Source of the DNA: Malacoraja senta
Lineage: Eukaryota
NCBI GenBank assembly: GCA_038087875.1
Contig: CM075991.1
Location: 7,070,001-7,134,000, forward strand
DNA: 64,000 nucleotides
Direction: 5' to 3'
A model generated the notes under the pieces. That model saw only the letters and a program-made list of their open reading frames with translations. It was not told the DNA's origin and made no database searches. Made by a program: the position numbers and the translations under genes. Each line of letters opens with the position of its first letter. Position 1 is the stretch's first letter. Positions 4,720 to 63,148 of this stretch are shown here, one piece after another.

Positions 4720-4920
4720 TAGAAACAGAAAACTCCAGATGCTGGTTTATAGCAAAGATAGACACAAAGCACTGGACTGAGAAAAAGAATAGGTGACGTT
4801 TCGAGCCGGGATCCTTCTGCAGTCTGAAGTAGGACCCTGACCCGAAACGTAACCCATTCTTTTTCTCCAGAGATGCAGCGTGACCTGTTGAGTTACTCCT
4901 ACACGTTGTGTCCGTCTATC
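4720..4920. mobile_element. Fold-back (inverted pair) Penelope terminal repeats
   Basis: minus-strand copy followed by plus-strand copy, meeting at the hammerhead cores (4793-4853). Confidence 0.75.
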
Positions 4921-9555: not shown

Positions 9556-10613
9556 ATCTTTACTAAATGGTAAGTTGTTTCAAAACCGTTCAATGGCCCT
9601 GCTACTTGTGGCATGCAATTCTGACCCTTCACTAAGTGATATGTAGATTGTTGAAGAACTTATACCTAGCCAATGAGGTGTGGGATTAAATTGCCTATGT
9701 GTTTTCTTTTGCTTATTTGAAATTGTTCTTGTTGGAAATGAAGCACTTTGATTAGCTATATGACAGGTAGAAGTGATGCAACAATCTCAAAACATACTCA
9801 GTAATCAGAAACTCTGTTTTTCCCTCCACCTATGTTGTTTGAGCTACTGATAATTTCCAGCATTTCTGGTTATATTATGATAATAGATGATGCGCTTAAA
9901 TAATAAGCTATGCTTGGCTTCATTGGTTGGGGCATTAAGTATAAGAGTCAGAAAGACCTGATGAAGCTTTATGGGACTTTGGTTAGGCTGCATTTGAGGT
10001 ATTGCACGCAGTACACATTGCCCCATTACAGGAAATATGTGCAGGCATTGGAGAGGTGCAGAACAGGTGTACCTAAGTAATGCCTTCGATAAGAGGGTAT
10101 TCTGTCGTCTTGTGTCGATTGAAGCTCTGAAGACTCACTGAAACGTCACCCATTCCTTCTATCCAGAGATGCTGCCTATCCCGCTGAGTTACTCCTGCAT
10201 TTTGTGTCTATCTTTAGAGAATCAAATGTTTTTTTCTCTCTCTGTGTGGTGTGTGTGTTTTTGCAAACTCCAGTCACATAACAACTGGAGCATGGTTGGA
10301 TAATGGCGGCAAAACATGGTGCCACTTGCATGGAGACTCAGTAGACTATTTCTGTATAATTGCCAATTGCGGGGGTGGCATGGTCATACTCTGCTGAACT
10401 GTTTGTGACAAAGGAATTTCACGGTGCGTTTGCACTTCACACATGTGACAATAAAGCATGAAGATAGACACAAAATGCTGAAGTAACTCAGCGGGACAGG
10501 CAGCATCCTTCTCTCCCGAGATGCTGACTGCCCGGCTGAGTTACTCCTGCATTTTGTGTCTATCTTCGATTTAAACCAACATCTGCAGTTCTTCCCTGAC
10601 AATAATGTACCAA

Positions 10614-25904: not shown

Positions 25905-26525
25905 TCACCTTGAGCATCATGGCTGATATCAATGACAGAATCTGAACCCTGCCCTGTTTTCAAGCTACACTGAAGTTGGAAAGAAGCAAAACAGAAATAG
26001 AAGAATGGACAATTTATTTTTCACTGCATTATTTCCCTGAATGACACAAAGTATTTCTTTCACAACATTAAAAATGAAATCGTTATCCGAGTTAAAACAA
26101 GTAAAAAGAAACCAGTCCTTAATATAATTTCACCATCAGTTTATTATTAGGATATTTCTGTGATTGCATTTGGGGGAGAAAATATTCTTCGCTATCCTTT
26201 AAAAAGGAGATACAAAGTGCTGGAGTAACTCTGCAGGTCAGGTAGCATCTCTGGAGAACATGGATAGGTGACGTTTTGGGTTGGGATCCTTCTTCAGACT
26301 TGATTATCCTTTGCAACATAAGAAGTTCAACATCATTATTCCAGCTGTAATTTAGTTGCTCAAGAAACCTAAAATTTAGAAGAAGGGTCTCGTCCCAAAA
26401 CGCCACTTGTTCCTTTTCTCCAGAGATTGAGTTATGCCAGCATTTTGTGTCTATCTTTGGTTTAAACCAGCATCTGCAGTTCCTTCCTACACTAAAAGCT
26501 ATCTGCAGTTCCTTCCTACACTAAA

Positions 26526-26728
26526 AGGGGGAGTGCAGTGGAGAGATATGTTTTTTTTGCCTTCCATCACAGCGTTGTGATGGATGTATGTGTAAATTGT
26601 GTTGTGTCTCGGGTCTTCTTCGTTTTGTATTGTATGGCTGCAGAAACGACATTTCGTTTGGACCTCAAGGGGTCCAAATGACAAATTTGTCCAAAAGACA
26701 AATAAATTGAATTGAATTGAATTGAATT
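26526..26728 (+). mobile_element. 3' part of GC-rich hairpin-family retroposon
   Basis: gccttccatcacagcgttgtgatggatgt..tgtatggctg..tttcgtttggacctc; (ATTGA)n tail. Confidence 0.6.
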
Positions 26729-27570
26729 AAAAGCTATCAATTTGGGAAAAAAATTAATTGCAGTTTTCTGCAATAGATTAATATCAATAGTGTATTCACG
26801 TAATGCTGATAGAAATATCATATGAGGAGAATGCTCTATAAGACATTTTACAGTGGCCATAAACAATAAAAGATCGCCATTTCTTTGAGGCTGTTGTATG
26901 GGGTTCATATAGGGAAGATAGACGCAAAATGCTGGAGTAACCCAGTGGGACAGGCAGCATCTCTGGAGAGAAGGAATGGGTGAGGTTTTGGGTTGAGACC
27001 CTTCTTCAGTCTACAGGTTTATATAAGGTATTGTTTTTTTTTTTCAGATTCTGATATTAACTTTCCATATATTGCTCACTTTTTTACTTCACTTTAATTT
27101 CCTATTACTACATTTTATATTGAGAGAATTGATTTTATTCGTGGTGGATATATTGTGCGGCCTACTGTGAGAATTCCAGGCTTATCTTTCAATAGTCTCG
27201 CAAGGATCATTTTCTAGTTCTGAGGCAGTCCCTGAGGATCAAGGTTAGCTTACTTCCGCTGTGGTTTTGTGGTTTCTAAGATGGTTAACAAGGCCATCGA
27301 GGAAACTGTAGATCTTCCACAGATCGGGCATGTGGGTATACTCAGGGCCTATGTGCATGGGCTTGTGGTTCATTTTATCATACCAATTGCTTCATCTGAG
27401 CAGTCAAAGGCTGGGGATTGCCAGGAATCAGTTTCTTCAAAGAGCATCCTTTAATCTTTTCTTCAGTCTACCGGATGGTCTCTCCCTATGCCAGTACCTG
27501 GAATAGATTGGCTGCTTTGGAGTGTGATGTGGAGCCCGTCAAAGTACTGAATGGGTCATGGTTTAATTGT

Positions 27571-27690
27571 CTGAAGAAGAGTCTCGATCCGAAACATTAC
27601 CCATCCCTTCTCTCCAGAGATGCTGCCTGTCCCCTGAGTTACTCCAGCTTTTTGTGTCTATCTTCAGTTTAAACCAGCATCCTTCCGACA
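27571..27690 (+). mobile_element. Penelope mini-element starting at the hammerhead core
   Basis: 14-bp TSD catggtttaattgt at 27557-27570 and 27691-27704. Confidence 0.85.
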
Positions 27691-27702
27691 CATGGTTTAA
27701 TT

Positions 27703-27994
27703 GTGGTGCAGCTGGTAGAGCTTCTGTCTCACAGCGGCAGTGACCGAGGTTCGATCCTGACCTTGGGTGCTGTTTGTGTGTTCGCACTTTCTCTCCCTGA
27801 CCACGTGGGTTTCCCCCCACATTCCAAAGACGTGCGGGTCTGTAGGTTAATTGGCCTCTGTAAATTGCCCTTGGTATGTCGGGAGTGGACGAGTAAGCGG
27901 GATAACATATAACCAGTGTGACAATGGTCGGCGAGGACTTGATGGGCCGAAGGGCCAGTTTCCTTGCTGTATCTCTTAACGAAAACAAAACTAA
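27703..27994 (+). mobile_element. HE1-like SINE (older)
   Basis: gtggtgcagctggtagag..ggttcgatcctgacc..ccaaagacgtgc..gggccgaagggcc. Confidence 0.8.
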
Positions 27995-28023
27995 ATAACT
28001 GAAATGGAGATGCCCGGAGATAG

Positions 28024-28209
28024 TGTAGGAAGGAACTGCAGACGCTGGTTTAGACCGAAGATAGACACAGAATGGTGGAGTACCTCAGCGGGACAGGCAG
28101 AATCTCTGGAGATGGTCTGAAGAAGGGTCTTGACCCGAAACATCACCCATTCCTACTCTCCAGACGTTCTGCCTGTCCCGCTGAGGTACTCCAGCATTTT
28201 GTGTCTATA
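28024..28209. mobile_element. Fold-back Penelope mini-element (putative source of the 44.2-44.6 kb copy)
   Basis: inverted arms joined at ctggagatggtctgaagaaggg; flanking repeat cc(c/t)ggagata. Confidence 0.8.
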
Positions 28210-28823
28210 CCTGGAGATAAGTCTGGAAATTATATGTGTCCCTACGTAGAAGGGAAGAAGCAGTTTTATTGTGAGTCTCTGGGTGGAGATATTCTATTGA
28301 ATACTAAGGCCAAAACAGAATGGTGTACAGAATGGAGCACACCATGGAGGCTTTACATGCTGCTCCCAATGCAGTAAATTAGACAATGGTGTGTAACTGA
28401 GATCCATGCCCAATATCCAAGAGTCTGGCTGTTGCCATGTTTCATCCATGCATTCACTGTAACCCACAGCAACATTCTTTCAGTTGCCTGAATGTCAATT
28501 TTAAAATGTATGCCACTTTGCGCTGAGATAGTTAAACAATTTAGGATCCTACTTTCTCTTCATTTGATAGAGATGCTCATCTCAATTTGGGGCAATCTGC
28601 AGCCACGGATTAAGAATGAAATGTCCCCAATGCTTGCAGAGAGAAAACAGTCGTGCAATGATCTGTGTGACTTTTAATATCACTGCATTTGCTTTATTCA
28701 AATCTCATTACATTTTGCTTGGCGAAATGAGGCAACCGGAGGGTACATTCTAAAAGGGTACAAGAATGGAAAGGGCTGGAATTACTTAGTACATATCTAT
28801 TATGCAGAGTACAAAGTACTGAG

Positions 28824-29550
28824 TTGTGTAGGAAGAAATTGCAGATGCTGGTTTATACTGAAGATAGGTTATACCGAAGATAGACATAACATGCTGGAGT
28901 AACTTAGCGAGTCAGGCAGCATCTCTGGAGAAAAGGGATGGGTGACGTTTCGGGTCAGAACCCTTCTTCAGACTCAAATTTCAGACAAATGGGAACCACC
29001 TCACTTGTAAATTTATTTGCATTTGAACACTCTTGAGACTTGGAGAAATAAAGAACTGCAGAGTGGAAGAAGGATCTCAACTTGAAACGTCACCCATTCC
29101 TTCTCTCCAGAGATGCTGCCTGTCCTGCTGAGTTACTCCAGCATTTTGTGTCTATCTAAAGAACTGCAAATGCTTGTTAATACATAAAAAGACACAAAGT
29201 GCTGGAGTAACTCAGTAGGCCAGGCAGCTTCCCTGGAAAACATGGATAGGTGATGTTTCGGGCCGAGACTGTTTTTGACAAATGTCTCCTATTCATAGTG
29301 TTTAAGAAGGAACTGCAGATGCTGGAATATCGAAGGTAGACAAAAGTGCTGGAGAAACTCAGCGGGTGCAGCAGCATCTATGGAGCGAAGGAAATACGCA
29401 ACGTTTCGGGTCGAGATCCTATTGAGTCTGAAGAAGGGTCTCGACCCGAAACGTTGCCTATTTCCGTGGCTCCATAGATGCTGCCTCACCCGCTGAGTTT
29501 CTCCAGCATTTTTGTCTACCTGCTGAGATACTCCAGCACTTTGTGTCCTA
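28824..29550. mobile_element. Cluster of nested Penelope mini-elements (A and B)
   Basis: several inverted copies; a B fold-back at about 29301-29520 lies inside an A copy; intact core at 29428-29455. Confidence 0.75.
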
Positions 29551-30254
29551 TTGTGACTTGTAACAGTTGTCATCCCTATCTCACTGCAGCATGGGAACAC
29601 TAATCAGTGGAATGAGACTAACAACACGGTTTATCAAGTTGTCTAATTGACTCTCGAGGAAGAACAATTATTGTACTTGAATTTATATATTGTCTACTCT
29701 CTACAAAGTTGCTTGATTTAGAATATTGGATAAGACATGTGTTTTAGCACTGAATTCCTGATGTGATGTATTATTAATGTTGCTTAACTCAAATTGTTGG
29801 GGTAATTCAATTTTCAAGTGTGAAAAAACCCTCCTTTGATGTGAGGTGTAGACGTTAGCACCCCAGGGTGCCTCAAGGTGCCCTGCAGTCAACAAATTGA
29901 TTTTTAAGTACTATCATTGATGCTATACTGGCAAAACCAGCAGTCGATATTTTTGCATATTGCAGTCATTACTGTCTTAATATTGAGCAATTCCATTATA
30001 TTGTACGCATACAGCATAAGCTGTGTCCACTTGCTTATCAAGTTTAAAGGAAATTAGGTAGGTGTTGCATTACATGGGAAACATCCTCCTCAGGGCCCTT
30101 GTATAGTGACACAGTTGCTAGAGTGCATCTCACAGCAAGCGTTCCTCCATCTCGGAGAGTGTACGGTGCTATCACATCAGTTTATATGTGGTCAGCTTGA
30201 ATTTTCAACCCGCCTGATTCATAAACCCTGGATAGGCACAAAATGCTGGAGTAA

Positions 30255-30583
30255 AGCCCCTGTCCCACTTTCCCGAGTTACTCACGAACTCTCCCGAGTT
30301 TTCCCCTTGATTCAAACTCGGAGAATTTCGGTAATAGCCATTCGTAGGTACTCGGGGCTATTTCTTTTACTCGTGGACATTTTTCAACATGTTGAAAAAA
30401 CGTCCCGACTTACCTGATGCCCCAAGTTCCTACGGCTGGCATTACGAGCCACTACGAAACATCTACGGACTCCTACGGCCTCCTACAAGCTTGCTACCGA
30501 CACTCCCCGACATTCCCCGAGTTCGAATCAAGGGGAAAAGTCGGGAGAGTTCGTGAATAACTCGGGAAAGTGGGACAGGGTCT
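30255..30583. mobile_element. PIF/Harbinger-like MITE 4
   Basis: TIRs of about 55 bp (agcccctgtcccactttcccgagtta..); inserted in Penelope gctggagTAActcagc, flanks TAA/TTA. Confidence 0.85.
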
Positions 30584-30682
30584 TTACTCAGCGAGACAGG
30601 CAGCATCTCTGGAGAGAAGGAATGGGTGATGTTTTAGGTCGAGACCCTTCTTCAGACTACAGGTTTATATCCTGCAGAAGTT

Positions 30683-31522
30683 TTTAGATGACTCTGCAAT
30701 TGTGGGCTGCATCAGGGAGGGGAGGGAAGGTGAATACAGAGATGAAGTCAACAACTTTGTTGAGTGGTGTGAGCTGAATCACCTGCAGCTCAACACCAAC
30801 AAGACTAAGGAGTTGATGGTGGACTTTGGGATGAGAGGAACACCCCTGTCTCCATCAATGGTGTGGATGTGCAGTTAACCAGGGAGTACAAATACTTTGG
30901 AGTGTACCTGGACAGTAAACTGGACTGGTCCAGGAACGCTGAGGCCCTGTACAAGAAGGGACAGAGCCACCTGCACTTTCTGAGGAGGCTCCGCTCTTTC
31001 AATGCCTACAGTAAGATGCTGCAGATGTTCTACCGATCGCTGGTGGCCAGTGCCATCTTCTTCACTGCCGTGTGCTGGGGCAGCATTGCGAAGGTTGCGG
31101 ATGCCAAGAGGATCAACAAACTCATCAGGAAAGGCTGGCTCCGTCCTGGTGGGCAGAGTTGGATTCATGAGAGGTGGGTCTTGGAGGTGAGGATGCTCCT
31201 CAAACTGCAGAGCATCCTGGACAATACAGTTCACCCCCTCCATGACACACTGGTCAACCTGAGGAGCACCTTCAGCAAAAGACTAGTTCCACCAAGATGC
31301 AGCACTTCTTCAAAGTGGCTATCAAACTGTACAACTCCTCCCCCTTCTATCATGGGGTAGACTGAGTCTGACACCCCCCCCCCCCCCCACCCCTCCAATC
31401 TTTGCACATCCCCCAAAGCTTTCCACTCGTCACTTTTATTTCATGTTTCATGTATTTTGTGTTTTTATGACTGTTGGCAAATCAATTTCCCTCGTGGGAT
31501 AAATCTAGTTCTATCGTATCGT
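30683..31522 (+). mobile_element. Rex1/Babar-clade LINE 3' fragment (frameshifted RT)
   Basis: DDSAIVGCI..NHLQLNTNKTKELMVDF; YKYFGVYLDSKLDWS..KKGQSHLHFLRRLRSF; (TCGTA)n tail. Confidence 0.9.
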
Positions 31523-32240
31523 ATTGTTGCTTTACAGATTCTGATTTTAACTGTCTGTACATTGCTAACTTTTTTACTGCATTTTAATTTTCTATTGCCA
31601 CATTTCATGATGAGGGAATTGTTTTTATTCGAAACCGGGTCTCTGTTGCGCTGTTAGACAACATCTCTACTGCTGCGCCACCGTGCCGCCCATGTTCCAA
31701 AGTGCTTTGTGGCTGGTGATATATTTTCGAAGTGAAGTCACCGAAAGGCTGCGGAAGGTGATAAAGCAGTGACAATATTCCTGAACTCTCAAGATCCACG
31801 TTCTGAGGATTAAGCCAAATCCTGTGGCTTGGGAAAATGTTCCAAGCCCCTGTGGTCGATATACAGAGAGGCTAAACAGCAGAGTGTCTCCCAACAGGGT
31901 TAGAATGAGGGAGATTAATTTATAAATGGCAGATCGAGTTTGAAGTGGACGTGTTTCCACGAATGTCATGCATTAAGCATTCACTGTGTATCTCGGAGGA
32001 CAAGCTTAATGAGGTCATTATGTTTGTGTTCTCAGTGAGCAGACTGCTGATGTAAACCTGTGTCATATTCACCCTGAAGAAAGTTAATCCGTTCTCTGAT
32101 CGCTAAGTGATAAGTGTCTTCTGTGAAATATCTGATGAGCTCCTCAAATCTTGGAGGCGAAGAACCTGCAGCTGTTCTTAATCTCATTGTTCTTAATCTC
32201 TCCACATCACCGCCTATCTCTCTCATTATCCCTAACCAGT

Positions 32241-32268
32241 CTGAAGAAGGGTCTCGACCCGAAACGTC
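32241..32268 (+). ncRNA. Minimal type I hammerhead ribozyme core in Penelope terminal repeat (representative intact copy)
   Basis: CTGAAGA-A-GGGTC.TC.GACCC-GAAA-C-GTC: CUGANGA and GAAA boxes, helix II, palindromic ACGT in place of helix III, GUC triplet. Confidence 0.75.
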
Positions 32269-32807
32269 ACCCATTCCTTCTCTCCAGAGATGCTGCCTGT
32301 CCCGCTGAGTTACTCCTGCTTTTTGTGTCTCTCTGCAGCTGTTTTACTTTGTGTCCCACATGTGGCTTTGCCCCATTGCTGGTGTGCATCACAGTCTAGA
32401 GGTCAGCATGTGTGATCGCTCCGCTACTGGAGGCTCAGGAGCAACCTACACATGACTCCCACACTCAGACTTCAATAGCAATTGTAGTTTATAGATACAG
32501 TTCATTCGGCTTATCAAGTCTACTCTGCCATTCAATCATGGCTGATCTATCTTTCCCTCTCAACCCCATTCTCCTGCCTTCTCCCCATAACCTTTACCAA
32601 TCAAGTATCTGTAAATCTCTGCCTTAATGCTGTGTGACTATGATTAGACGGAGGTAACTTAAATGAGGCCTCTTAGATCTCATTCCTACAGGGGCCTCAT
32701 GTGAATCCCATTTGTTAGCTGCGTTTTGACTACTTGGTGACATTTTCAGTGTGTGGTACCCATTGTAAAGCACACTTGTAGCTTTCAATACTTAGTAGCA
32801 TCATCCT

Positions 32808-33127
32808 TGTTTAGTTTGGTTTAGAGATACAGTGTGGAAACAGGCCCTTTGGCCCATCGAGTCCGCGCCGACCAGCGATCCCCACACATTAACACTATCC
32901 TACACACACTAGGGACATTTTACAATTATACCAAGCCAATTAACCTACAAACCTGTACGTCTTTGGAGTGTGGGAGGAAGGCGAAGATCTCAGAGAAAAT
33001 CCATGCGGTCACGGGGAGAACGTACAAACTCCGTACAGACAGCACCCGTAGTCAGGATCAAACCTGGGTGTCTGATGCTGTGATGGCTGTAAAGCAGCAA
33101 CTCCACCGCTGTGCCACCGTGCCGCCC
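32808..33127 (-). mobile_element. HE1-like SINE, full length
   Basis: complete head (gtgccaccgtgccgccc), V-domain and tail. Confidence 0.9.
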
Positions 33128-34436
33128 GAATAGTGGATTCTGCTTTGCACTTTGCACTTTGGGGCTAGGCAATGACCTTTGAAGTTCGACATGAGCGGGT
33201 GAGGGATCCAAAGCAGATTCCTCATCTCACCTTACAAGGAGGTGCCCAACAGGTCTTGGGGGGAGGTGACCAAGCAGCTAGATGCGTGAAGGATGCATGG
33301 TACAATGTGATAATATGTTTACCTCTTGCCAATCTGTATGTTAGACAGTGAAATGGAGAAAACTACTCTACTGGAAGAAAAACTCTGTTCAAAGCTCTGG
33401 TGTAAAGATGTAGCAAGTTCACAAGTTCAGCCTTTAGTAGGAGGATCTACCATGGGCACCGTTTGTTGCTTGAACGTTGATCCAGGTCAGGGATTAAGTT
33501 GGAATCTGCTTTCAATTTGTGTGACATGGAAGTGGAAGCCAGCACCACTACAAGGGTCACCGCTGAGTTTATGGGAGAATTAGCCCTCATTTTTAATGAC
33601 ACCATAACATGTGAGCAGCCAGGAAATCGGCGAGAGACCTGAATGACTCATTGCTGGCCAACTAGGTATTGAATAAGGAAGGGTCTCGACCCAAAACATC
33701 ATCCCTTCCTTCTCACCAGTCCCTTCTCGCTTGTCCCGCTGAGTTGCTCCAGCATTTTGTGCCTATCTTGACTTGATTTGCCAACATGATTTGCTCTGAA
33801 GGTATAGAATCAGCCCCAATACCCTTCACATTACATCAAGCAGCGTTACAGGTGCAATTCACCTTAAGATTCAGCAGTTCTTTTGCCGCTTGCTCTCGGA
33901 TACATCAGTTAATTCAGAGGAAACTAAACATCAGTTGCAAATGTCAGAAAATGGAAGCTATTCCTTCAAATGCCCCGGAGCACAACTGGAAAATGTCTTC
34001 CTCTTGTTCAGCACCTGCCCACAACATTGCTCCCAGAGCAAAAACCAAAGATACTTGGCTAATAAATGTTTACCTCATCATGTCCTTGGTGTAGATGCAC
34101 AAACAATGAGTAACAGAATTGTTCATAGCCTCCAGCAATTTGCTGAAACTTTTGGATTGCTAATTTATTGAGCCTCTGCGGATTTTGATTTGTTTTATTT
34201 TGCTTCTAGTATCCCCCTTTGATATTTTCAAGGAAAACTTCTAAAATTGTTTCATAATGTAAGAAGATTATACTGATGGTTGAGAGCACAGGACACACTC
34301 TGAGGCTTAAATGCATCCCAGGAGCTGCACAGAGCAACAAGATGACTCACTAAAAGAAACAGGCAGTAAATGCTGGGCTTATCTCTAAATAAGATATCTG
34401 CAAAAACCCCACACAAAAACCTGATCCGATCCATAA

Positions 34437-34687
34437 CTGCTACGGGTGCTGTTTGTACGGAGTTTGCACGTTCTCCCCATGACTGCGTGGGTTTTCCCCA
34501 GGTGCTCCAGGTTTCCTCCCACGCTCCAAAGACGTACAGGTTTGTAGGTTAATTGGCCTTGGTAAAAATTGTAAATGATCACCAGTGTTTTGGATAGTGC
34601 TGGTGTACGGGGTTTGCTGGTCGGCATGGACCCGATGGGCCGAAGTGCCTGTTTCCCCGCTGTAACTCCAAACTAAACTGAACTGAA
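34437..34687 (+). mobile_element. HE1-like SINE, 5'-truncated
   Basis: ctacgggtgctgtttgtacggagtttg..ccaaagacgtacaggtttgtagg..(CTRAA)n. Confidence 0.85.
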
Positions 34688-34999
34688 CGCTGCACTGCGA
34701 AAGGTGCCGATCTTTGGAGGAAGTGTAGAGGCCCACTTTTTGGTTTAATAGGGACTTAATGATCTTAGCTCATTAATCAAACAACTGGGGAAATTGTCTT
34801 GTCTAACATTTGGCCCTTTGCATTAACAATGTATATTACCTCGTTATTTATCTTGAGTGCACAGAGTTTTTACCTTAGTAATAATGGATACACTTGAAAA
34901 CCAAACCCTTTGGGATGTTTACACTAAATATGGGTGTAAATTGTGGGTTTGCAGTATGAGACTTGACTGACTCCAGCTCTTGACCTATGAGAGCATCTG

Positions 35000-35243
35000 A
35001 GAAGGAGGGAACTGCAGGCGCTGGTTTACACTGATGCTAAACACAAAATGCTGGAGTAACTCAGCGGATCAGGCAGCATCTCTGGAGAAAAGGAATAGGT
35101 GACGTTTCGGGCCGAGACCCTTCTTCACAGTGTGAAGAAGTCTCAAGTCCGAAGAAGGGTCTCAACCCGAAACGTCACCTATTTCCATTTCTCCAGAGAT
35201 GCTGCCTGACCTGCTGAGTTACTCCAGCATTTTGTGTCTATCT
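35000..35243. mobile_element. Fold-back Penelope mini-element with stuttered core
   Basis: arms meet at cccttcttcacagtgtgaagaagtctcaagtccgaagaagggtctc. Confidence 0.8.
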
Positions 35244-36036
35244 AGGAAAGTATCTCATTAATAATTAAAATCCATTGTGTTAATTTGTGATATTCAATTG
35301 TTTTTAATTCATTTGTGGGATTTAGGTATTGCTGGCAAGGCCATGATTTATTAACCATCTGTAATTGCCATTGAGTAAAGGGTTGGTGAGACGCCTTCTT
35401 AAACTGTCGCAGATCTCGTGAAGATGCTCCCAAAGGTATATGAGCGCCGGTATATGGGACTAGGGGAGAATACGTGTTCGGCACGGACTAGAAGGGTCGA
35501 GATGGCCTGTTTCCGTGCTGTAAATTGTTATATGGTTATATGGGTTAGACGATGACGTTTTGACCCGGTGAAGGTAAAGGATGAAGGATATATTTCTCAG
35601 TCCGAATGATTTGGAGAGGAACCTGTAGGTGTCACCATATAGCTGCTTCCGTCAGTTGTTGGCGGTTAAAGCCATGGGTGTGTGCTGTGCACTGAAGTAG
35701 CCTGGGTGAGTAACAACAGTGGATTTCATAGGTGGAGTTAAGTGATACAGCGTGGAAACATCTCAACGTGAGGGCTAATCAAATGCCGCAAATGAGGACT
35801 AACACTGGATTTTAAATATAAATGAGATGCTCTTGTAGGTCAAAAGCTGGTGTTAGTCAAGTTTCATACTGCAAACCCACACTCAGAAACATCTCAAATG
35901 AAATTTACACTGATATAGTGTAAACATCTCAAATGACTTGGATTTCTAGTGTATCCATTATTACTGAGGCAATAACTCTGGCTCTTCAGCCCACTGAGTT
36001 CACACCAACCATTAATCACTCCTGTAGAACTCCTGT

Positions 36037-36381
36037 TTAGAGATGCAGCGTGGAAACAGGCCCTTTAGCCCACCGAGTCCGCACTAACATGATCACCCAT
36101 ACACGTGTTTGGCGTAGACTCGGTGGGCCAAAGGGCCTGTTTCCATGCTGCATCTCTCAACTAAACTAAAGGAGTGCTTAATAGTTGATGGAAACTCAGT
36201 CCTACGAACTAGAGACATTTTACAGAGGACAATTAACCCCCAAATCCACACGTCTTTGGAATATCGGAGAAAACCCATCCAGTCTCAGGGTGAACATGCA
36301 AACTCCGTACAGAATAGACAGAATTGAACCCGGGTCCCTGGTGCTTTAAGGCAGCAACTCTACCGCTGCACCACTGTGCCT
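36037..36381 (-). mobile_element. Decayed, rearranged HE1-like SINE
   Basis: tail present in both orientations at 36037-36170; head gcagcaactctaccgctgcaccactgtgcc. Confidence 0.7.
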
Positions 36382-39300
36382 CTATTAATTTACTGTAATT
36401 TACTCTAATTCTGCACAAATCCTATATCATTCTCGCACATTCCTACCATGCAACTGCTGTCTATCAGTGGTGGAGGGCATGAATGTTTATTTTGGTTGTT
36501 CGGGTGCCAATGGACAGCTTTGTTTTTGAAATATTGACCTTCTCGAGAGCTGATAGTACCAGTGAGAGGAGAGTATTCCTTCACATTCTGGCTTATGGAT
36601 AGAGGGAGGCCTTGCGGTGTCAGGAGGTCATTTGCCATTGGATACCCAGCCTCTAGTCTGCTTCTAAGGCTATGGTACTCACAAAATGTGGCTTTTTCTG
36701 AAGAAGTGTCTCAACCCAAAATGTCACCTATTCCTTCTCTCCAGAAATGCTGTCTGTCCCGCTGAGTTGCTCCAACATTTAGTGGCTATCTACAATTTAA
36801 ACCAGCATCTGCAGTTCCTTCCTACACTCTAAGGCCATGGTATTGGATTTGTAAATAGGAATTTGAACTAATCTCTTCGGGTTTCTTATGGGTACATTGG
36901 TTAAAATTACCTTCTTAGGTTTCACAATCCATGGATCCAACTTTATTTAGGTAAAATGTGTAGGATGGAACTGCAGATGCTGATTTACACCAAAGATAGA
37001 CACAAAACGCTGGACTAACTCAATAGATCAGGCAGCATGTTTAAGAAGGAACTGCAGATGCTGGAAAATCGAAGGTAGACAAAAATGCTGGAGTAACTCA
37101 GCGAGTCAAGCAGCATCTCTGGAAATAAGGAATAGGTGACCCATTGGTCAAGACGAGTCTGAAGAAGGGTCTTGACCCGAAACATCACCTATTCCTTTTC
37201 TCCAGAGATGCTGCCTGACCCGCTGAGTTACTCCAGCATTTTACGTCCATCTTTTATTTAGGTATAGATGTGTGGGTGTGAAGAGACGATTGTGGCTTAT
37301 CAGCCTGGTGATAAAGTTCAACAAAGTATTCGACCACAGGCTTATTCATGAAGTTTAGCGCTGTAACATATTTGGAATCCTGGAGACGCGATTGATTGTA
37401 ATGTGAGAGTTCATTAAACGATCAATCTTTGCTGAAGCCAAGCTTTGTAGTGTAGCTACGTCCGATACTGGAGAGCATCACTTGCATCCTTCAACCACTC
37501 TTTCCACAAAAAGAACTATCCAGCTATTCAACTATCTTGAGTTTGCTGACTATCTATCTCCCAGTGTGTACCTGAGTCATTTGTCCACACAGGTACCAAC
37601 CCAGAATGAGGTTAAATTTGATTTGCCAGCTCACCGTTGCTCATCCGAGTTTGATTTCTCCGTGTCCCTTTATCCCTGCGGCAGTATCGAGCAGTGTTTC
37701 TTTTAACAAAGTAATCTGCGGGAGAGTGATAGGGAAAATATAAAAATGAAAAACAACTGCAGCGTTTTGAATGAGACAAAATTGATAGTCAATAAGCTGG
37801 GAAGAGAATGGGTATCAGAATGCAGCACGGATGTGCAATGGTCTCGTCTGAAGTGCAGGCAAAATTGAGAAATTGATAAGCTGACAGCAAAATATTGGAA
37901 TAAATCCTCATTTCTTATGATTTTGCTTTAGTGACAGACAGCCTTATCAAAGTCATTGTTTCCAACATTCTGTTTAAATGCAAATTACATTGTTGAAGTG
38001 TCTGGTTTGATTTCTGCAGTGGGGCTTCATTCTGTCCGTGAAGGGAAAATAGCTACTACAGCTCCGTAGACTGACTGGAGGAATCAAACCTGACTGGTTA
38101 ATCTGCATTAGAGTGAACAGTGATACAGTCTGCGGTGAATTCAAAAATCAACCAACACAAAGTCTGTGACTGTAGGCAATACTCAAACCTTAAATGAATT
38201 TTTCACTTCACGGTCTGTAGTATGATTTAAAATACCATCATTCAAAAAAGATGTTACTAGCAAAAGAGATTAACCGCAGCACCATTTGAAGCAGATGAGA
38301 CTCATGAATATAATCGAGCGTCTTACCTGAAGATTTATTTTCCTTCCAGAGTAAATGACAAACCTCATTTCTGTCCAATCTGAAGTGCCAGAAATGCCTT
38401 TTTAGTTTACCTGATAGCAATGGTTTTATATGTCAAACTGGAAATATCTTTCCATAGCAGCTTGTCCTTTCTAATCTCTCCTTCCTCCCTCCTGATTTCT
38501 CCTTTTTGAGTGTTGTACAACACTGAACGAGATGAAAGTTGAAAGTTGCGGAACATGTTCAGAACGGCAACGAAGGCTTTCTTGAAAATGGGAAAGTACT
38601 TCATCATTCCTAGCATGATCCGGGCACCAACCTCGTTTCTCCTAAATTCACCAGAGTGGACATCTGCAACTTGTATCCGCTCCTCTGACAACATCTGTGG
38701 TTGATTTGTACTTCATGCTTCATGGACATCTCCACGCTAGATTTGTATTCATGTGGATTTCAACTCCAATTGTTCCAAGGGAAATCCTTTGAAAATTGCA
38801 ATGGAGAAAAGCAATTGTGTTCTTATCCTATTGGTTTTGGCTTTAAATTAAAATATTCTTTAAATTGTGAGACCCTCTGACACAACTGGTCATAGAATCA
38901 TAGAGTCATACAGCACGGAAACAGGCCCTTCAGCCCACCTCGTCCATGCCGACCAAAATGATGGGGCCTCTGCTTGGAAAGATAACTGAACCAGACTGAG
39001 TGAAGAAGCTGAGGTTAGCCAACCGATTATCCTGTTGTTAGACACAACATGGTGGAGTAATTCAGTGGGTCGAGACACAAAATGTCAGCTATTCCTTTTC
39101 TCCAGAGATGCTGCCTGACCCGTTGATTACTCCAGCGTTTTGTGTCCATCTTCGGTGTAAACCAGCATCTACAGTTCCATCCTGCACAGATTATCCTGTT
39201 TGCCAGATATATTCTGTGTATCTACTGCCACAAAGTATCATTCCTTCATCCTTTGTTGATCTCTAAATTGAAGTCACCATGGGCTTAACCGTAGAGTGCT

Positions 39301-39668
39301 GTAGTATGTCAGTGGGCTAGGCAGCATCTCTGGAGGGAATGGATGGGTGACGTTTCAGGTTGCGACCCTTTTTCAGTCTCTGAAGAATTCTGAAATCTGA
39401 AGAAGGGTCCCGACCTACACTTCGTATATCCATTCCCACCATAAGAGAGACCCACTGAGTTACTCCAGCATGTTGTGTTTTACTCAAGGTTCCAGGATCT
39501 GCGATTTTAGTGTCAGCATTGGATTGTTTGACAGATATCATTGGCATATAGTGAGAAGTGGTCTTTACATGTTGAGAAGATGTTTTCTTAATTTCATACC
39601 ATTGATCCCAAATACATGCTTGTACATTAACTGGCGACTGTAAATGACCATCACTGTAAATAGGTTAA

Positions 39669-40005
39669 TGTTCATAAGTGATAGGAGCAGAATTAGGCCA
39701 TTTGGCCCATCGTCTACCCTGCCATTCAATTATGGCTGATCTATCTTTCCCTCTTAATCCCATTCTCCTGCCTTCTCCCCATAAGTGATAGGAGCAGAAT
39801 TAGGCCATTTGGCCCATTGTCTACCCCACCATTCAATCATGGCTGATCTATCTTTCCATCTTAACCCCATTCTCTTGCCTTCTCCCCATAGCTCCTGATA
39901 CCCATACTAATCAAGAATCTATCTATCTATCTCTGCCTTTAAAATATCCCTTGACTTGGCCTTCACAGCCTTCTGTGGCAATGAATTCCACAGATTCACC
40001 ACCCC
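39669..40005 (-). mobile_element. CR1 3' end with tandemly duplicated 3' UTR (period about 107 bp)
   Basis: cataagtgataggagcagaattaggcc..ccttctcccc repeated at 39673 and 39780. Confidence 0.85.
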
Positions 40006-40555
40006 AGTAGGAGATTCAGAGTGTGGGACAAATGTTGAAAGGTAAGTGAGAGGGAGTAGGTTGGAATGAGCTTGAACACCTGTGAGAGCCAGCATAACCT
40101 CAATAGGCCGAAGGGCCTCCTTCTGTGTCATCAGGAAATATGAATAAAAAGTATCGCATCGTTAACCTGCTTTAAACAGATCATAAAATGCATTGTCAGT
40201 TAAGGTATACAACAGACTGTATGATTTGGTTGAAAGAGGCAATAGATCACTTTGGAGATGATTAAATAGATTACGTCTTGTACTCTTCATGGAGGATAGA
40301 TTCAAATTATAAGATGCATGCTGTTGTATGTAGATTGAAGTTAAGATGAAAATATGGTGTCAATGTTATCATTAAGATAATATGTAACTACAGAGTGGTA
40401 TTTCTGTAATCAATACCTTATCCTCTCCATATCCTTGAAATAAAATAGTTTTGTGTACCCAGAGCAACCAACCATGGGAGATTGACAACAAACGTTATTA
40501 AGTTGCTGAAAAATCTTCTGGTGACAAAAGAAATCTTAAATATCTGCAAGGTTTC

Positions 40556-41635
40556 AGAAAGAACTGCAGATGCTGGAAAAATCGAAGGTACACAAAAATG
40601 CTGGAGAAACTCAGCGGGTGAGGCAGCATCTATGGAGCGAAGGAATAGGCGATGTTTCGGGTCGAGACCCTTCTTCAGACTGATGTGGAGGTGGGGGGAG
40701 GACGGGGCGGGAAGAAGAAAGGAAGAGGTGGAGACAGTGGGCTGTGGGGGAGCTGGGAAGGGGAGGGGAAGGAGGGAGAAAGCAAGGACTACCTGAAATT
40801 GGAGAAGTCAATGTTCTTACCACTGGGGTGTAAACTACCCAAGCGAAATATGAGGTGCTGCTCCTCCAATTTGCAGTGGGACTCACTCTGGCCATGGAGG
40901 AGGCCCAGGACAGAAAGGTCGGATTTGGAATGGGAGGGGGAGTTGAAATGCTGAGCCACCGAGAGATGAGGTTGGTTAATGCGAACTGAGCGGAGGTGTT
41001 GGGCGAAGCGATCGCCAAGCCTACGCTTGGTCTCACCGATGTAGAGCAGCTGACACCTAGAGCAGCGGATGCAATAGATGAGGTTGGAGGAGGTGCAGCT
41101 GAACCTCTGCCTCACCTGGAAAGACTGCTTGGGTTCTTAGATGGAATCAAGGGGGGAGGTAAAGCGACAAGTATAGCATTTCCTGCGGTTGCAAGGGAAA
41201 GTACCAGGGGAGGGGATGGTTTGGGTGGGAAGGGACGAATTGACCAGGGAGTTACGGAGGGAGCGGTCTCGGTGGAAAGCCGAAAGGGGAGTAGATAGGA
41301 AGATGTGGCCATTGGTGGGATCCCGTTGGAGGTGGCGAAAATGTCGGAGGATTATCCGTTGTATGTGATGGCTGGTAGGGTGGAAGGTGAGGACAAGGGG
41401 GACTCTGTCCTTGTTACGAGTGGGGGGGATGGGGAGTGAGAGCGGAGCTATGGGATATAGAGGAGACCCTGGTGAGAGCCTCATCTATAGTCGAAGAGGG
41501 GAACCTCCATTCCCTAAAGAATGAGGACATCTCCGATGCCCTGGTTTGGAACACCTCATCCTGGGTGCAGATGCGGCGTAGACGGAGGAATTGGGAGTAG
41601 AGGATGGAGTCCTTACAGGAAGCAGGGTGGGAAGA
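40556..41635 (-). mobile_element. Penelope-like retroelement (Neptune-type), 5'-truncated: RT thumb, Cys linker, GIY-YIG endonuclease, terminal repeat
   Basis: SSHPASCKDSILYSQFLRLRRIC; PCNRRKCYTC linker; NLIYCIRCSRCQLLYIGETKRRLGDRFAQH..HFN..LEEQHLIFRLGSLHPSG.N; followed by hammerhead core at 40651-40678. Confidence 0.92.
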
Positions 41636-41638
41636 CAT
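40789..41638 (-). pseudogene. Disrupted Penelope RT/GIY-YIG ORF fragment
   Basis: domains are spread over ORFs 41414-41638, 41137-41484 and 40789-41115, separated by a frameshift and a stop. Confidence 0.85.
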
Positions 41639-42410
41639 TAACTATCAGCAATGTCTTTCAACTGAAATTGGGCTCACTGAACTCAACTGAAGATGATGGC
41701 ATTGAAAATTTTTAAATGCAAACTGATTGTTTCAACTTACTTATCGAATAATATGCAGAAATAAAGAACTGCAGATGTTGGTTTATACCATTACGCAGAT
41801 GATATAAAATTGGAAAATCTGGCACAGAAATTTATCCTCAATGCAATATGATATGGCAGTGTGTTGTACACATCCAAATTTTGCATTCAATGAAGACATG
41901 AAGATCGATTACAACATAGCCGCTACTATTTACAGATATTAATAATCGCGCCAAAAGAAATATTAAATGTGACCATATTTATTCATCTAACCTTGAACAC
42001 AAACTGTGAATACCAATGGAAAATAGCATTCTGCTCAATCAGTGAGCAACAGAAAGGACATTGATTCGAGAAATTAATCTTCCTTGAACTAAGACAAGGT
42101 TCAGAGCTGGCTGCAAGTAAGGTAAAGTCTACACAGAGAATATTAGATCAGAGACTGAGTCTCATCGTGTAAGTCACCAGCCAAGGCTACGTGGAAAGGT
42201 CATCTCTCAAAGAGAAAGATAATTAAATGGTGCCAGTCTTGGGTTATAAATGACTGGAGGTTCCGGGAAGAGGTGTATCAGTAACTAGTGCTGTCGGGTC
42301 TTGTTTAAGATTAAATAAAATGATTACCATTTGTGCACTGCAGAATATTTCCATTCAACCAATAACCCTTGTATAGTCATACACTGTATGCCTGCAGCAA
42401 CACAGAGTAA

Positions 42411-42528
42411 GGCGGCACAGTGGCACAGCTGTTTGAACCACTGCCTCACAGAGCCAGAGACCTGGCTTCGATCCTGACCTCGGATGCTGTCTGTGCGGAG
42501 TTTGCATGTTCTACCTGTGACCACGTGT
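42411..42528 (+). mobile_element. HE1-like SINE head (its tail probably at 43514-43536)
   Basis: ggcggcacagtggcacagc..ttcgatcctgacc. Confidence 0.75.
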
Positions 42529-42530
42529 GA

Positions 42531-43424
42531 TTCCTCGAACGTAGCCCCCAGCGATGCATGTTGGCGTTGAACCGGCCGACCCCTGTACGGTGCCGGTTCA
42601 GGGCGACGCACTCTTTGCGGAGCAGGTCCAAGCCGGGTGGGGCTGTGGTGTTCGGTGCAACAGTGAATTACAGAGGTCGTGAAGTCTGTTCCCAGCTAGT
42701 TCTCCATGCTCCTCGTGTGTTGAAACCGGAGCCACACAGGGTCGCTGCGTGATGGGAGAAGGGGCGACGAGATGACAGGCGTTGAGGTCCTGGGCAAGGT
42801 GGTGCAAAGGATGTTTGGAATCCGATGGGGCCTTGCACACCAGCCTGTGGGTGAAGTACTCTCTGCGAAGCTTGGCGGGTGCAACACCTGCGAGCACCGG
42901 CAGAAGATCCGTCGGAGTGGGGCGTAGGCAGCCGGTGATGATCCGCAAGGTGTCGTTGAGGATGGTGCCTAGCTTGCTAGTATGAGCGCTGCTGCACCAT
43001 GCTGGGGCGGTGTACTCAGCGGCGCTGTACACGCGTGCAAGAGCACTGGTTCGGAGATTAGATGTCCTGCCGTCCCATGATGATCCAGCCAAGCAACGCA
43101 GGGGGTTGTTCCGCGCCGAGACTTTAGCATGGAGAGCTTCCAGGTGTTGCTTGTAGGTCAGCTGCCGATCTAGTTTCACCACGAGGTATGTAGGAAATGG
43201 GTTATAGGGTAGGGGTGACCCATTGACGGTGACGGTTAACTGGCGTTGAGCTTCCTTGTTGTTCAGGTGAAAGGCCGTTGTGGTGGTTTTTGCCACACTC
43301 AGTTTTAGTCTCCAGGTCCTAAGGTAGCCCGCGACAAGTTCCATATCCGCCGAGAGCACATCGTCCACGTTTGTCCAACTCCTGTCCGAATGCAGTCGGG
43401 CCAGGTCATCTGCGTCTCCATACT
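42531..43424 (-). mobile_element. Vingi/Ingi-like LINE fragment (RT motif C to C-terminal region)
   Basis: ADDLA..YLRTWRLKLSVAKTTTTAFHLNNKEA..LDRQLTYKQHL..LAGSSW..LRTSALA.VYSAAEY.APAW..ITGCLRPTP; LNRHRTGVGRF; GC-rich. Confidence 0.8.
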
Positions 43425-43490
43425 GGCTCATGTTGTCGACCTCCCCGTGGTGAGCCCTGTCAACTGACCTCAGTCAGGCGAGCGACAACA
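43425..43490 (+). ncRNA. HDV/CPEB3-like ribozyme fold (5'-clipped, probably decayed)
   Basis: P1 GGCTC/GAGCC(CT); P2 TGTTGTCG/CGACAACA; P3 ACC/GGT; L3 TCCCCGT; P4 CTGAC/GTCAG; J4/2 CGAG; all in canonical order. Confidence 0.75.
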
Positions 43491-43855
43491 AGCAGAGGCA
43501 GCCGCAGAAATACAACTAAACTAAACTAAACTAAACACATTGTAGCCGAAGGAACAAAACAAATGAATAATTGGACTAGAATATAGACCAACATAATATT
43601 GACATCATTTTGAATTCCACCATAATGGTTGACAGCGTTTAAATTCAATAAATCAGGAATGGATAACTGGAGTTGGTGACTTTATCTTGCACTAATGTTA
43701 TTCCCTTTATCCTGTATCTGTATAGTGCGGGTGGCTTGATTGTAATCATGTGTGGACTTTCTGCTGACTAGATGACAGACAACAAAAAAGCTCTTCACCT
43801 TTACCTCAACTAAACTAAACCCATCTGGTTTGTCAATGTCCTTCAGTGACCCTGG

Positions 43856-44161
43856 TTTGTTTAGTTTAGCCATACTGCGCGAAAGCAGGCCCTTCGGCCC
43901 ATCACGTCTGCGCCGGCCAGCGTTCCCTGTATACTAGCACTATCCTACACACGAGGAACAATTTACAATCTTTGCCAAAGCCAATTAAGCTGCAAACCTG
44001 TACGTCATTAGAGTGTGGGAGAAAACCGGAGCACCCAGGGAAAACCTACTTGGACAAGGGGAGAACATATGAACTCTGTACAGACAGCACCCGTGGTCAG
44101 GATCTAACCCAGGTCTCTGGCGCTGTGAGGCTGCAACTCCACCGCTGCGCCACCGTGCCGC
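43856..44161 (-). mobile_element. HE1-like SINE, full length
   Basis: accgctgcgccaccgtgccgc head, V-domain, caggcccttcggccca tail. Confidence 0.9.
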
Positions 44162-44238
44162 TGGGTCTTCATTAATTAATTTCTAACTGCAGGCCACACA
44201 ATTCAGGGGATGCACAATAAATATTGACCTTATTAGTG

Positions 44239-44602
44239 TAGGAAAGAACTGCAGATGCTGGTTTAAATCGAAGATAGACACAAAGTGCTGGAGTGACTCA
44301 GCGGGACTGGCAGCATCTCTGGAGAGAAGGGATAGGTGATGCTTTGGGTCAAGACCCTTCTTCAGACTGTCTCCAGTGATGCTGCCTGTCCCGCTGAGGC
44401 ATTCCACCATTTTGTGTCTATCTTCAGTCTAAACCAGCATCTGCAGTTCCTTCCTACACTATCTCCAGGCATCTTCATCTCTGGATCATTTCAGTTATTT
44501 TTTGTCTGAAGAAGGGCCTCCGACCCGAAACGTCACCTATTCCTCCTCTTCAGAGATTCCGCATCTCCCGCTGAGTTACTCCAGCATTTTGTGTCTATCT
44601 TC
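44239..44602. mobile_element. Composite Penelope mini-element (three arms plus captured unique DNA)
   Basis: 13-bp TSD gaccttattagtg at 44226-44238 and 44603-44615. Confidence 0.85.
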
Positions 44603-45505
44603 GACCTTATTAGTGATGTTCACATCACATGGACAAATACAAAAAGTATTTCTGGCTAGTTTGCTGAAAGTTCTGCTTATTCCATACTGTTGAATATCGG
44701 AGAGCTGCAAATGCTTGTATGTTGTGAATTTAAATCAAGCAACTGTGAGCAATTTTCTATCTTATGAACTCTGGCCCACTTCTCTTTTCAAAAGAAGAAA
44801 GACTCACTCGTTCAATCTTTATTGAGATCTCTCAGTCCTTGTACATGTTTGTGATTTTATCTCATCCTCTCTAGTGTCTTTAAATCTTTTTTAAAGACTT
44901 TAGAAAACTAATCAGTATAAGCCACTCAAATGTCCTTGTATTTTTTAATTATAAATTTAACATACTTGTTCATTTCTGATGTGCAGTGTTCTTCACAATC
45001 GAACTCATCAAACAGTGGGAAATAAAGCTCATCTGTTCTTTACTGCTTTGTGTTGCTGATCAGTGATAGTTTTTCTACTCTCTTTCTCCTTTGACAAACA
45101 GTGTCTCCTTCATTCTGAAGCATGGTAATGCACTTATCTGCACAAGAAGCATGGCCTCTGAAGTGAGCCAAAACTCAAGGTACTTGAGGAACAGCGGGTC
45201 AGGCAGCATATGTGGAGGGAATGGACAGGCAACGTTTTGGGTCGGGACCTTTCTTCAGACTCTGTGAGATATTAGCAATGTACATGAATGAATGAAAGAG
45301 GGAGAGTAGGTAATGGTTGTTGGGGGGAAAGGGGAAACTGTGTAATGGAGAAAGGGGTTCAGGGAGAGAAGGAGACTATCTTAGACATGCGAATTGGTAG
45401 ATTTTGATGTGAACAGAACTGGGTCTGGAAGATTGGGGCTTGGGAAATGGGAAGGTTAAAACTAGGTATAAGATTGAGGTACACTTTGCTCAGGTCAATC
45501 AGTAA

Positions 45506-61284: not shown

Positions 61285-62343
61285 ATGAGTAAATTGACTC
61301 CAGCTGTGAGCCCTCAGAGAGCTGTGAATAAACTGTCGAAACAGTTCGAAATTGAAGTTACCTCTGAAGTCTCTGAAGTGGCTGCAGAAATGGATACAAG
61401 ATCTAAGAAAGACTTTGATGACTTGAAAAAATCAATGAAAAATTTGAAAGATGAGATCTCGGATAATAGGGTGGAAGATAAGAAGGAAATGAAGGAAAAT
61501 TCGGCAAAAATGATGGAAGGAATGCAGAAGATGATGAAGGATTTAAATGCTGGTAACCAGAAGAATATGACGGATTTACTGGACACTATGAATAAACGAA
61601 TTGATGAGGTGAAAGATGGACTATCAGAGAAAATGGATAAGATGGATGTAATTACTACGGATAAGTTCACGGCTGTACTTGAAACAGTAGCTGCAAGTAT
61701 GCAGACAATCACGGAATTGGAGAAAAATACGGCACGACTGGTTGAAGACATGGCGAAATTGAGGCAAGAACATGAGCAAATGAGGCGAGAAAACGAACAA
61801 GCATCACTACAAATGGGGACTCAATTAGAGAAAGTCTCATTCAAATGCCTGGACCTGGAAGCTCGTTCTAGACGCCAGAATCTGAGGATTCTTGGTGTTT
61901 CAGAGGGGGCAGAAGGGGAACAGGTACGTGAATTTGCCATGGGCTTGTTGAATCTTCCCAAGGAACCGAAAATCGAAGTGGCTCATCGTGTCCCAAGATT
62001 TGGAAAAAGATTTGATGCGGGAAAAGCTTATCCACGACATATTATAGTGAAATTTCGAGACACTGCAGAACTGGAATATGTTATGACCCATATCAAATAT
62101 GGTGTACAATTACGGCTGGACAAAGACACTATTAAGATATTCAGGGACTACCCACATGAAATTGTGCAAAAAAGAAACAAATTTGATAAGGTTAAAGATC
62201 TTTTAAGAGGGAGAGAAGGGGTCAGATTCGGGGTTTTTTATCCCGCTAAAATGCGTATTTCTTTTAATGGTCTTGAAAAGTCATTTGTTAAGCCTGAAGA
62301 CGCTTTCAAATATGCCCAAACGATTGTTGAAAGACAGAAATAA
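61285..62343 (+). CDS. L1 ORF1p (coiled coil + RRM + CTD, Transposase_22-like), 352 aa
   Basis: long heptad-rich region, then DLEARSRRQNLRILGVSEG, IEVAHRV, PRHIIVKF, IFRDYP, YPAKMRI. Confidence 0.92.
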   Translation: MSKLTPAVSPQRAVNKLSKQFEIEVTSEVSEVAAEMDTRSKKDFDDLKKSMKNLKDEISDNRVEDKKEMKENSAKMMEGMQKMMKDLNAGNQKNMTDLLDTMNKRIDEVKDGLSEKMDKMDVITTDKFTAVLETVAASMQTITELEKNTARLVEDMAKLRQEHEQMRRENEQASLQMGTQLEKVSFKCLDLEARSRRQNLRILGVSEGAEGEQVREFAMGLLNLPKEPKIEVAHRVPRFGKRFDAGKAYPRHIIVKFRDTAELEYVMTHIKYGVQLRLDKDTIKIFRDYPHEIVQKRNKFDKVKDLLRGREGVRFGVFYPAKMRISFNGLEKSFVKPEDAFKYAQTIVERQK

Positions 62344-63148
62344 AAGGGAGCTTTGGCAGATCTGAATAATTCTCAGCTATGTTTTGTCTGGGGATAGTTA
62401 CATTGTTATCTCCGGAATGTTGAAGCAAGGACATTTTCTGTTCAAAACGTGTAAACAACTTTATAACGGGATATGAATTAGAAAATAATTGCTTATTGAT
62501 TAAAATGTTATAACCAATTGTAAGAACTTATCCTATTAACAACTTTAAAAGTTATGCAGGTTAGATTAGAATACTAACAAAAAAAACAAAAAAATAAGGA
62601 ACTAACATACTAATATGAATTTTTAATAAATTGTAACCTTGTCTATAAGCGGGAGGAGGGGATGAGAAACGAGCTCCTGGCTTATGTCCAGGAGCACGTC
62701 TCGTTAACCCCTTCAACCAACAGCTGATTCTTATTGAAATCAAAAATATTGGTTTAATAATTAAACTCTGATATATATATATGTTATAAGGAAATATCAG
62801 GGTAAAATTGTATTATATATATGAATGTGAGGCCTCGTTTTAATATTTTAATATGTTATGATTAACTAAGAGAGCGGAGCGAGTTGAGCAACAACGCAAT
62901 GGAAGTCAAAATAAGGTTTTTTCCCACCTACAGGTGGGTCACTTGCTACAGTGCCGACTATAGACACTGTAGCCTCACTTTTTTAGTTTTTTTTTTATTA
63001 CATAAAATCACTTGTTTGTGTTTTGTGTTTAGTGATAAGAATAATATGGACATACCAACAAAAGTTAATAATTCAAAAACTCCCCCAATACCTAAAGACG
63101 TGGGATATGGACGCACCACAAGATTCAAAGGTACTATAATTATTCAAA

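Follow-up and report, generated by a model that had tools for sequence, protein, structure and literature searches.

The stretch examined here comprises 64,000 nucleotides of the skate Malacoraja senta (GenBank assembly GCA_038087875.1, contig CM075991.1, positions 7,070,001 to 7,134,000 of the forward strand); we refer to the whole of it as the window and number it from its first letter. The window is rich in repeats, and its SINEs (short interspersed nuclear elements) and other repeats resemble those of skates and rays. One short repeat we attribute below to Penelope-like elements (PLEs), and two insertions of this repeat, one near 28 kb and one near 44 kb, share more than the repeat itself, since the 44-kb insertion carries at its centre an inverted copy of part of the 28-kb element together with the host DNA beside it. 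As reference we took a 136-bp copy at 44235-44370 (minus strand), along which all repeat positions are numbered. BLAST found 82 matches to it in the window, about one per 800 bp; the variant counts given below span all 82, of which 77 remain besides the arms of the 28-kb and 44-kb insertions.

The 28-kb element consists of two opposed arms lying next to a remnant of a short interspersed nuclear element (SINE) and enclosed by a target-site duplication (TSD):

27691..27992, plus strand: SINE remnant, which we take to be HE1-like; its A-rich tail adjoins the copied flank, and the captured piece ends in or just past this tail
27993..28022, plus strand: host flank copied to 44 kb, whose final 10 bp (28013-28022) are the left TSD
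28023..28112, minus strand: left arm, a putative PLE pseudo-long terminal repeat (pLTR), repeat positions 46-135, with the tail present and the hammerhead part missing
28113..28114, plus strand: TG, the dinucleotide at the fold-back junction (the 44-kb copy has CA)
28115..28208, plus strand: right arm, repeat positions 4-97, with a decayed minimal hammerhead motif and no tail
28210..28219, plus strand: right TSD of the 28-kb element, 9/10 identical to the left TSD

This TSD was read directly from the sequence, and the right arm ends at repeat position 97, one base short of it. A strong hairpin (-118 kcal/mol, z -9.9) is predicted for the plus-strand RNA of the element. A separate, single-armed copy of the repeat with a 14-bp TSD lies at 27557-27704; it seems to have landed in the 5′ end of this SINE remnant.

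The 44-kb insertion has a more complex organization:

44226..44238, plus strand: left TSD, its final 3 nt overlapping the tail end
44236..44367, minus strand: terminal arm, repeat positions 4-135, including a 38-nt tail at 44236-44273
44368..44459, plus strand: captured junction and the copied left arm of the 28-kb element, spanning repeat positions 46-135 with 7/91 differences
44460..44503, minus strand: host flank captured from 28 kb, exceeding the present 28-kb version by 11 nt
44504..44604, plus strand: outer arm, repeat positions 4-103, tail-less, the usual second arm of such insertions
44603..44615, plus strand: right TSD, 13/13 identical to the left TSD

It thus has three arms, a tailed terminal one, a captured inner one and a tail-less outer one, and the 38-nt tail has no counterpart in the 28-kb right arm. 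When 44368-44503 is deleted, what is left is an ordinary head-to-head PLE hairpin, and we read the 44-kb element as just such a hairpin whose centre holds about 134 bp derived from the 28-kb locus. The insertion is old and no error of assembly, since record 8 of run X1, a contig of a relative, starts at 44578 within the outer arm and continues through the right TSD into flanking DNA, with 16 differing letters in about 420; the captured centre lies outside that contig. From 4 of the 24 listed runs, contigs were placed on 44001-45000, where 145,000-278,000 repeat contigs per run swamped the signal. No joint corresponding to an empty site at 44 kb was present among the 15 listed out of 3454 in these four runs and this interval, nor did the 11-nt flank difference appear among the listed joints (15 of 3454) and loose ends (24 of 3144) of the same runs. 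Close to the right TSD, one contig of organism D ends at 44614, and a contig of organism G carries 26 loose letters ahead of 44619. Nearby, relatives A, D and G have a 25-27-nt stretch around 44770 (44640-44889) that is absent from the window; no such stretch is listed for organism F.

Several features of the repeat point to a PLE origin. A longer copy of a related subfamily, truncated at its 5′ side, retains coding sequence:

40557..41136, minus strand: 5′-truncated copy with a C-terminal GIY-YIG coding piece (40792-41136), followed by the same type of repeat

The coding piece matches PF01541 with E 4.2e-05, its 24.2 bits lying just above the cut-off of 22.6, and further GIY-YIG C-terminal fragments occur elsewhere in the window. 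Coding sequence is absent from both the 28-kb and the 44-kb copies, and no full-length copy with an open reading frame (ORF) for a PLE-type reverse transcriptase was identified within the 64 kb. The window consensus of the repeat opens with CUGAAGA, a short stem, GAAAC and GUC, which by eye reads as a minimal type I hammerhead-like motif and agrees with the hammerhead described in passages of PMC4209133; an Rfam search gave 0 matches at the gathering score, and the motif has decayed in most copies. Because a GIY-YIG piece precedes the related copy and the consensus begins like a hammerhead, we assign the repeat as the probable pLTR of an endonuclease-bearing PLE.

The ends of the copies are in keeping with this assignment. 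The 3′ ends of 26 of 73 copies fall at positions 90-104 and those of 30 at positions 125-136, two clusters that fit both the 30-40-bp 'tail' mentioned for PLEs in passages of PMC8557442, where an inverted pLTR is tailed at one end only, and the two reverse-transcription start sites that the main text of PMC11167929 reports as measured for an anole PLE and as defining the tail. Loose contig ends also pile up at 44236, 44459 and 44601-44603, which are the ends of the reference arms, and lend weak support to two end sites. In the window, TSD-enclosed head-to-head arms are frequent: of the 31 listed arm pairs, 9 have a non-repeat TSD scoring at least 8, compared with 5/300 random pairs (a tenth pair reaching this score was discounted, its TSD-like match lying inside the repeat). 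Both loci discussed here show the inverted head-to-head pLTR with a tail at one end only, and each has a TSD, of 10 bp (9/10) at 28 kb and 13 bp (13/13) at 44 kb.

When we compared 27982-28208 with the reverse complement of 44274-44503, we found 86.5% identity over 230 columns, and within the window the two loci share no sequence beyond this match. The flank AAATAACTGAAATG has exact matches only at 27993 (plus strand) and at 44487-44500 (minus strand); together with the start of the arm it is again found at these two places only, as against none in 100 shuffles with up to three mismatches allowed. Taken alone the flank scores just 34, the best of 6 shuffles scoring 27. Some 30-40 bp of host flank were captured at 44 kb. 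The junction CTGGAGA-NN-GTCTGAAG likewise occurs twice in the window, NN being TG in the 28-kb element and CA in the 44-kb one, which would be independent decays of one CpG. Moreover, the 28-kb left arm and the 44-kb inner arm have in common three non-CpG variants, at position 75 (found in 0/65 other covering arms), position 83 (aatgGtgga; 1/65) and position 105 (1/35), and no other arm carries two of the three. The flank, the junction and these three rare variants tie the two loci together and argue firmly for common descent of the 44-kb captured piece and the 28-kb locus.

The direction of transfer can be read from the same features. The flank contributes the TSD of the 28-kb element, its 28-kb context continues leftward into the SINE while the 44-kb copy stops in or just after the SINE tail, and the 44-kb copy is nested within a separate insertion bounded by its own TSD; on these grounds the copying ran from 28 kb to 44 kb, the 28-kb locus being the donor or the founder. 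The flank at 44 kb carries the right-hand allele of the 28-kb TSD. We rejected an inversion of the intervening 16 kb, given that a direct TSD pair is intact at each element, and also an assembly artefact, given that the copies differ at about 13% of columns and that the relative's contig spans the right TSD. A sequence-only reading of this DNA had proposed that a Penelope element at 28 kb, together with a flank that its TSD marks as host DNA, had been copied in inverted orientation to about 44 kb, recognizable there by an unusual junction and private variants and enclosed by a new 13-bp TSD. With the extents corrected to the 230 columns above, our results agree with all of this: the junction is confined to two window loci, the Penelope identity finds support in the GIY-YIG-linked repeat, the head-to-head arms and the TSDs, and the direction in the TSD made from flank, the SINE context and the nesting. 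That reading had included neither the 38-nt tail of the 44-kb terminal arm nor the third arm at 44504-44604.

How the 28-kb sequence came to lie inside the 44-kb hairpin is less certain. We favour, at about an even chance, a homology-guided switch of template onto the 28-kb locus during the 44-kb insertion, for which an RNA and a DNA donor would yield identical products and are indistinguishable here. Reverse transcription on pLTR RNA would be primed by both nicked ends of the target, for one of them at the tail end and for the other about 35 nt inside. The tail-primed strand would then shift by homology to the 28-kb right arm (a transcript or the DNA itself, 16 kb off) 5′ of about position 37, copy the 28-kb junction, left arm and host flank, and stop at the SINE tail, where it would be joined to the second arm over a possible microhomology of 2-3 nt. 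At least one template switch is needed if RNA of the 28-kb locus was the template, because its right arm stops at position 97 beside its TSD, would never have had the 38-nt tail, and so provides no template for an arm that runs to position 135 at the 44-kb target. In line with such a switch, the captured sequence starts within a homologous arm, and its far end lies in unrelated DNA. According to the main text of PMC11167929 a PLE protein cuts and extends both strands, starting at two sites that define the tail; template jumps are proposed for PLEs in the main text of PMC3846280, and bioRxiv 2024.08.27.596794 proposes that complementary DNA (cDNA) of L1 pairs with nearby homologous DNA.

The terminal arm of the 44-kb insertion may even record where the switch took place. 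At positions 4-33 it differs from the 28-kb right arm at 2/30 sites, which makes the latter joint best with two others among 42 arms, whereas at positions 34-97 there are 10/64 differences, the 28-kb arm is only 17th of 46 in likeness, and the right-arm variants at positions 37, 44, 54, 55, 57 and 75 are all missing. This mosaic would place the switch between about positions 31 and 37, an interval that brackets the predicted hammerhead cut after position 33 and is a weak hint that the switch lay near the cleavage site. A bolder and rather improbable version is that reverse transcription runs off the ribozyme-cut 5′ end of the pLTR RNA (after position 33) and routinely jumps by homology to a neighbouring pLTR on the same chromosome, carrying its flank along. 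If this were true and general, the point of the template jump would be determined by the hammerhead, and a repeat present at about one match per 800 bp would shuffle sequence over short distances on a large scale.

A number of observations weigh against a switch at insertion. The mosaic signal rests on two CpG-decay sites that are also found in 2/48 other arms. The variant at position 57 is present in both 28-kb arms and missing from the 44-kb inner arm, while a variant at position 76 links that inner arm to the 44-kb tailed arm, so that later mutation or conversion is needed for both patterns. It is also a single event: of the four non-repeat spacers tested, only the one at 44 kb has a source in the window. 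Contig depth in four runs bounds the genome-wide copy number of the flank only loosely, at about 900-1500 single-copy equivalents, depth not being copy number. Metagenome scans gave 0 matches to the flank and 0 to the repeat core, in a collection from which this organism is evidently missing, so that they carry no information on the point. Finally, the outer arms of the 44-kb insertion diverge more from each other (15/100) than the copy does from its donor (9/121), as would suit later repair, although with a Fisher p = 0.08.

Later repair is indeed the explanation that survives best after the template switch, unlikely though we consider it. A plain 44-kb hairpin would have broken at its centre, and one end would have invaded the nearby homologous 28-kb arm, copied the junction, arm and flank and been rejoined (synthesis-dependent strand annealing), with no reverse transcription involved in the capture. 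Palindrome centres are fragile and repair favours nearby donors; the capture is located exactly at the centre of the hairpin, and the 28-kb donor is both near and homologous. The excess divergence of the outer arms would follow as well; however, 15/100 is ordinary, since arm-to-arm divergence in the other TSD-bounded hairpins of the window ranges from 2/60 to 20/93. Similarly, the position 83 variant, shared by the 28-kb left arm and its copy, does not occur in the 28-kb right arm; ageing of the donor may thus have preceded the copying, but an aged donor is equally compatible with a switch at the time of insertion. Repair also requires a second event at the same site.

We give rather little credence to a dispersed subfamily, in which the 28-kb locus founded a spreading composite and the 44-kb copy derives from an intermediate elsewhere, or both loci belong to larger duplicated pieces, so that their closeness would be due to chance. 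The loose bound on flank copy number mentioned above is what would permit it. However, the depth of the flank bin (3694 in run X19) can be explained by the 7 repeat bases that it contains, and it amounts to 0.65-0.70 of the depth at 44520 in all four runs. The 28-kb copy holds the TSD made from the flank and hence is the founder, and nothing is shared past the 230-column match. For a genome that we assume to be of about 2 Gb, the chance of a daughter landing within 16 kb is about 1 in 10^5, or about 1% for 900 daughters, uncorrected for the number of windows scanned.

The sequence-only reading had instead suggested that RNA reading through the 28-kb locus was reverse-transcribed, starting at the terminal repeat of that locus, and was inserted nearby with the hammerhead as a tag. 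The 44-kb order of arm, junction, arm and flank is what copying of that RNA from 3′ to 5′ would give, and pLTRs are reported to mobilize host DNA in cis in the main text of PMC3846280, but in this simple form the idea is very improbable and largely refuted: the 28-kb right arm is tail-less and ends at the TSD, while the 44-kb target is joined to a tailed arm that over positions 34-97 lacks the 28-kb variants listed above. By analogy with a different element, the in vitro work on an anole PLE in the main text of PMC11167929 reports that the RNA must contain sequence past the start sites and that hammerhead mutants insert normally, cleavage being dispensable in the one PLE tested; a ribozyme tag thus finds no support. 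Neither was an RNA intermediate corroborated, as no host exon was found, the 236 non-repeat ORFs giving retroelement-type or below-cut-off matches only. The term 5′ transduction holds in part: the daughter does contain the source's flank and has its own TSD, but colinearity with the source is not maintained between the initiation end and the 5′ break. In 5′ transduction by SVA, upstream host DNA is carried with the element as in the 44-kb case; there, one continuous RNA is copied from an upstream promoter, whereas the 44-kb product is impossible from one continuous donor RNA.

Closer parallels to the 44-kb insertion exist among PLEs. In Adineta vaga (Arkhipova, Yushenova and Rodriguez 2013; PMC3846280) the main text describes host DNA enclosed by pLTRs, an inverted pLTR that may or may not have a tail of about 30 bp, TSDs of 8-10 bp, non-coding captures between solo pLTRs and proposed template jumps, all of which resemble our case. 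In contrast, that paper features a whole multi-kb gene between direct pLTRs, with the donor distance not given in its main text, while the cargo at 44 kb is about 134 bp, includes the arm and junction of another copy and has a donor identified 16 kb off. Capture of host DNA by PLEs is also covered in passages of the review PMC6431247. For the Poseidon PLE of Anolis carolinensis studied in vitro (Frangieh et al. 2024, PMC11167929), the main text reports end positions about 35 nt apart that define the tail, extension of both strands and a minimal pLTR hammerhead, features that the skate repeat would share; the assays, however, concern an autonomous element in vitro, and neither flank capture nor template switching is described in that main text.

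Twin priming with template switching and templated insertions of L1 (bioRxiv 10.1101/2024.08.27.596794; PMC11702581) offer a further likeness, for these reports describe two primed ends, inverted arms and copied genomic segments of <250 bp, and the former proposes the pairing of cDNA with homologous DNA nearby. The templates there typically lie within about 15 bp of the site, whereas the 44-kb donor is 16 kb off and was entered via repeat homology; the enzyme would also differ (a GIY-YIG PLE), and there is no poly(A). The non-LTR retrozyme of bioRxiv 10.64898/2026.07.22.740005 has head-to-tail tandem hammerhead units; both window loci are head-to-head and neither holds a tandem array, and we do not place them in that class. 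Our literature search, which left most subscription papers and supplements outside its scope, returned no PLE insertion with a donor mapped kilobases away and no work on this repeat in skates. The capture of host DNA by PLEs has thus already been published, while a donor traced to a distance of 16 kb was not found in the literature searched.

The 44-kb event is a single, old capture of about 134 bp of non-coding DNA and shows no sign of function. Its interest lies in the questions on PLEs that passages of PMC8557442 and PMC11167929 leave open, namely how tandem and inverted ends form and what purpose the hammerhead serves, since insertions whose central DNA can be traced are a natural record of the switch point and of the donor distance. 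With 82 repeat matches in 64 kb, many such insertions are to be expected genome-wide, and it should be possible to address these questions by counting.

Other parts of the window contain structures that may be related. Non-repeat spacers lie between opposed arms at 26301-26372, 28975-29062 and 4600-4722; none has a source in the window, and they are candidates for DNA captured from elsewhere. At 36942-37264 one 12-bp TSD surrounds two tandem tailed arms of different subfamily type together with an opposed arm, which suggests that more than one template can be used per insertion. An exact 29-bp tandem duplication at 26472-26527 includes the end of a tail and the adjacent flank. We also observed an 84-bp direct duplication (88%) at 9226-9309 and 10049-10132, 823 bp apart, in which the 10049 copy continues a long interspersed nuclear element (LINE) fragment and leads into a repeat arm, and another hairpin is found just to the right of the 9226 copy; no TSD enclosing this duplication was found, and it is doubtful that it was a second local copy event.

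The inverted pair 3299-3449 and 3784-3947 (87% over 164 columns), found only these two times in the window, is perhaps the remnant of a DNA transposon. A weak match to MRG among the ORFs of the window, which had no further support, was discarded. At 61285-64000 (plus strand) a 352-codon ORF is followed by an ORF with an endonuclease domain (PF03372, PF14529), an arrangement resembling the 5′ part of what we take to be a young L1-type LINE.

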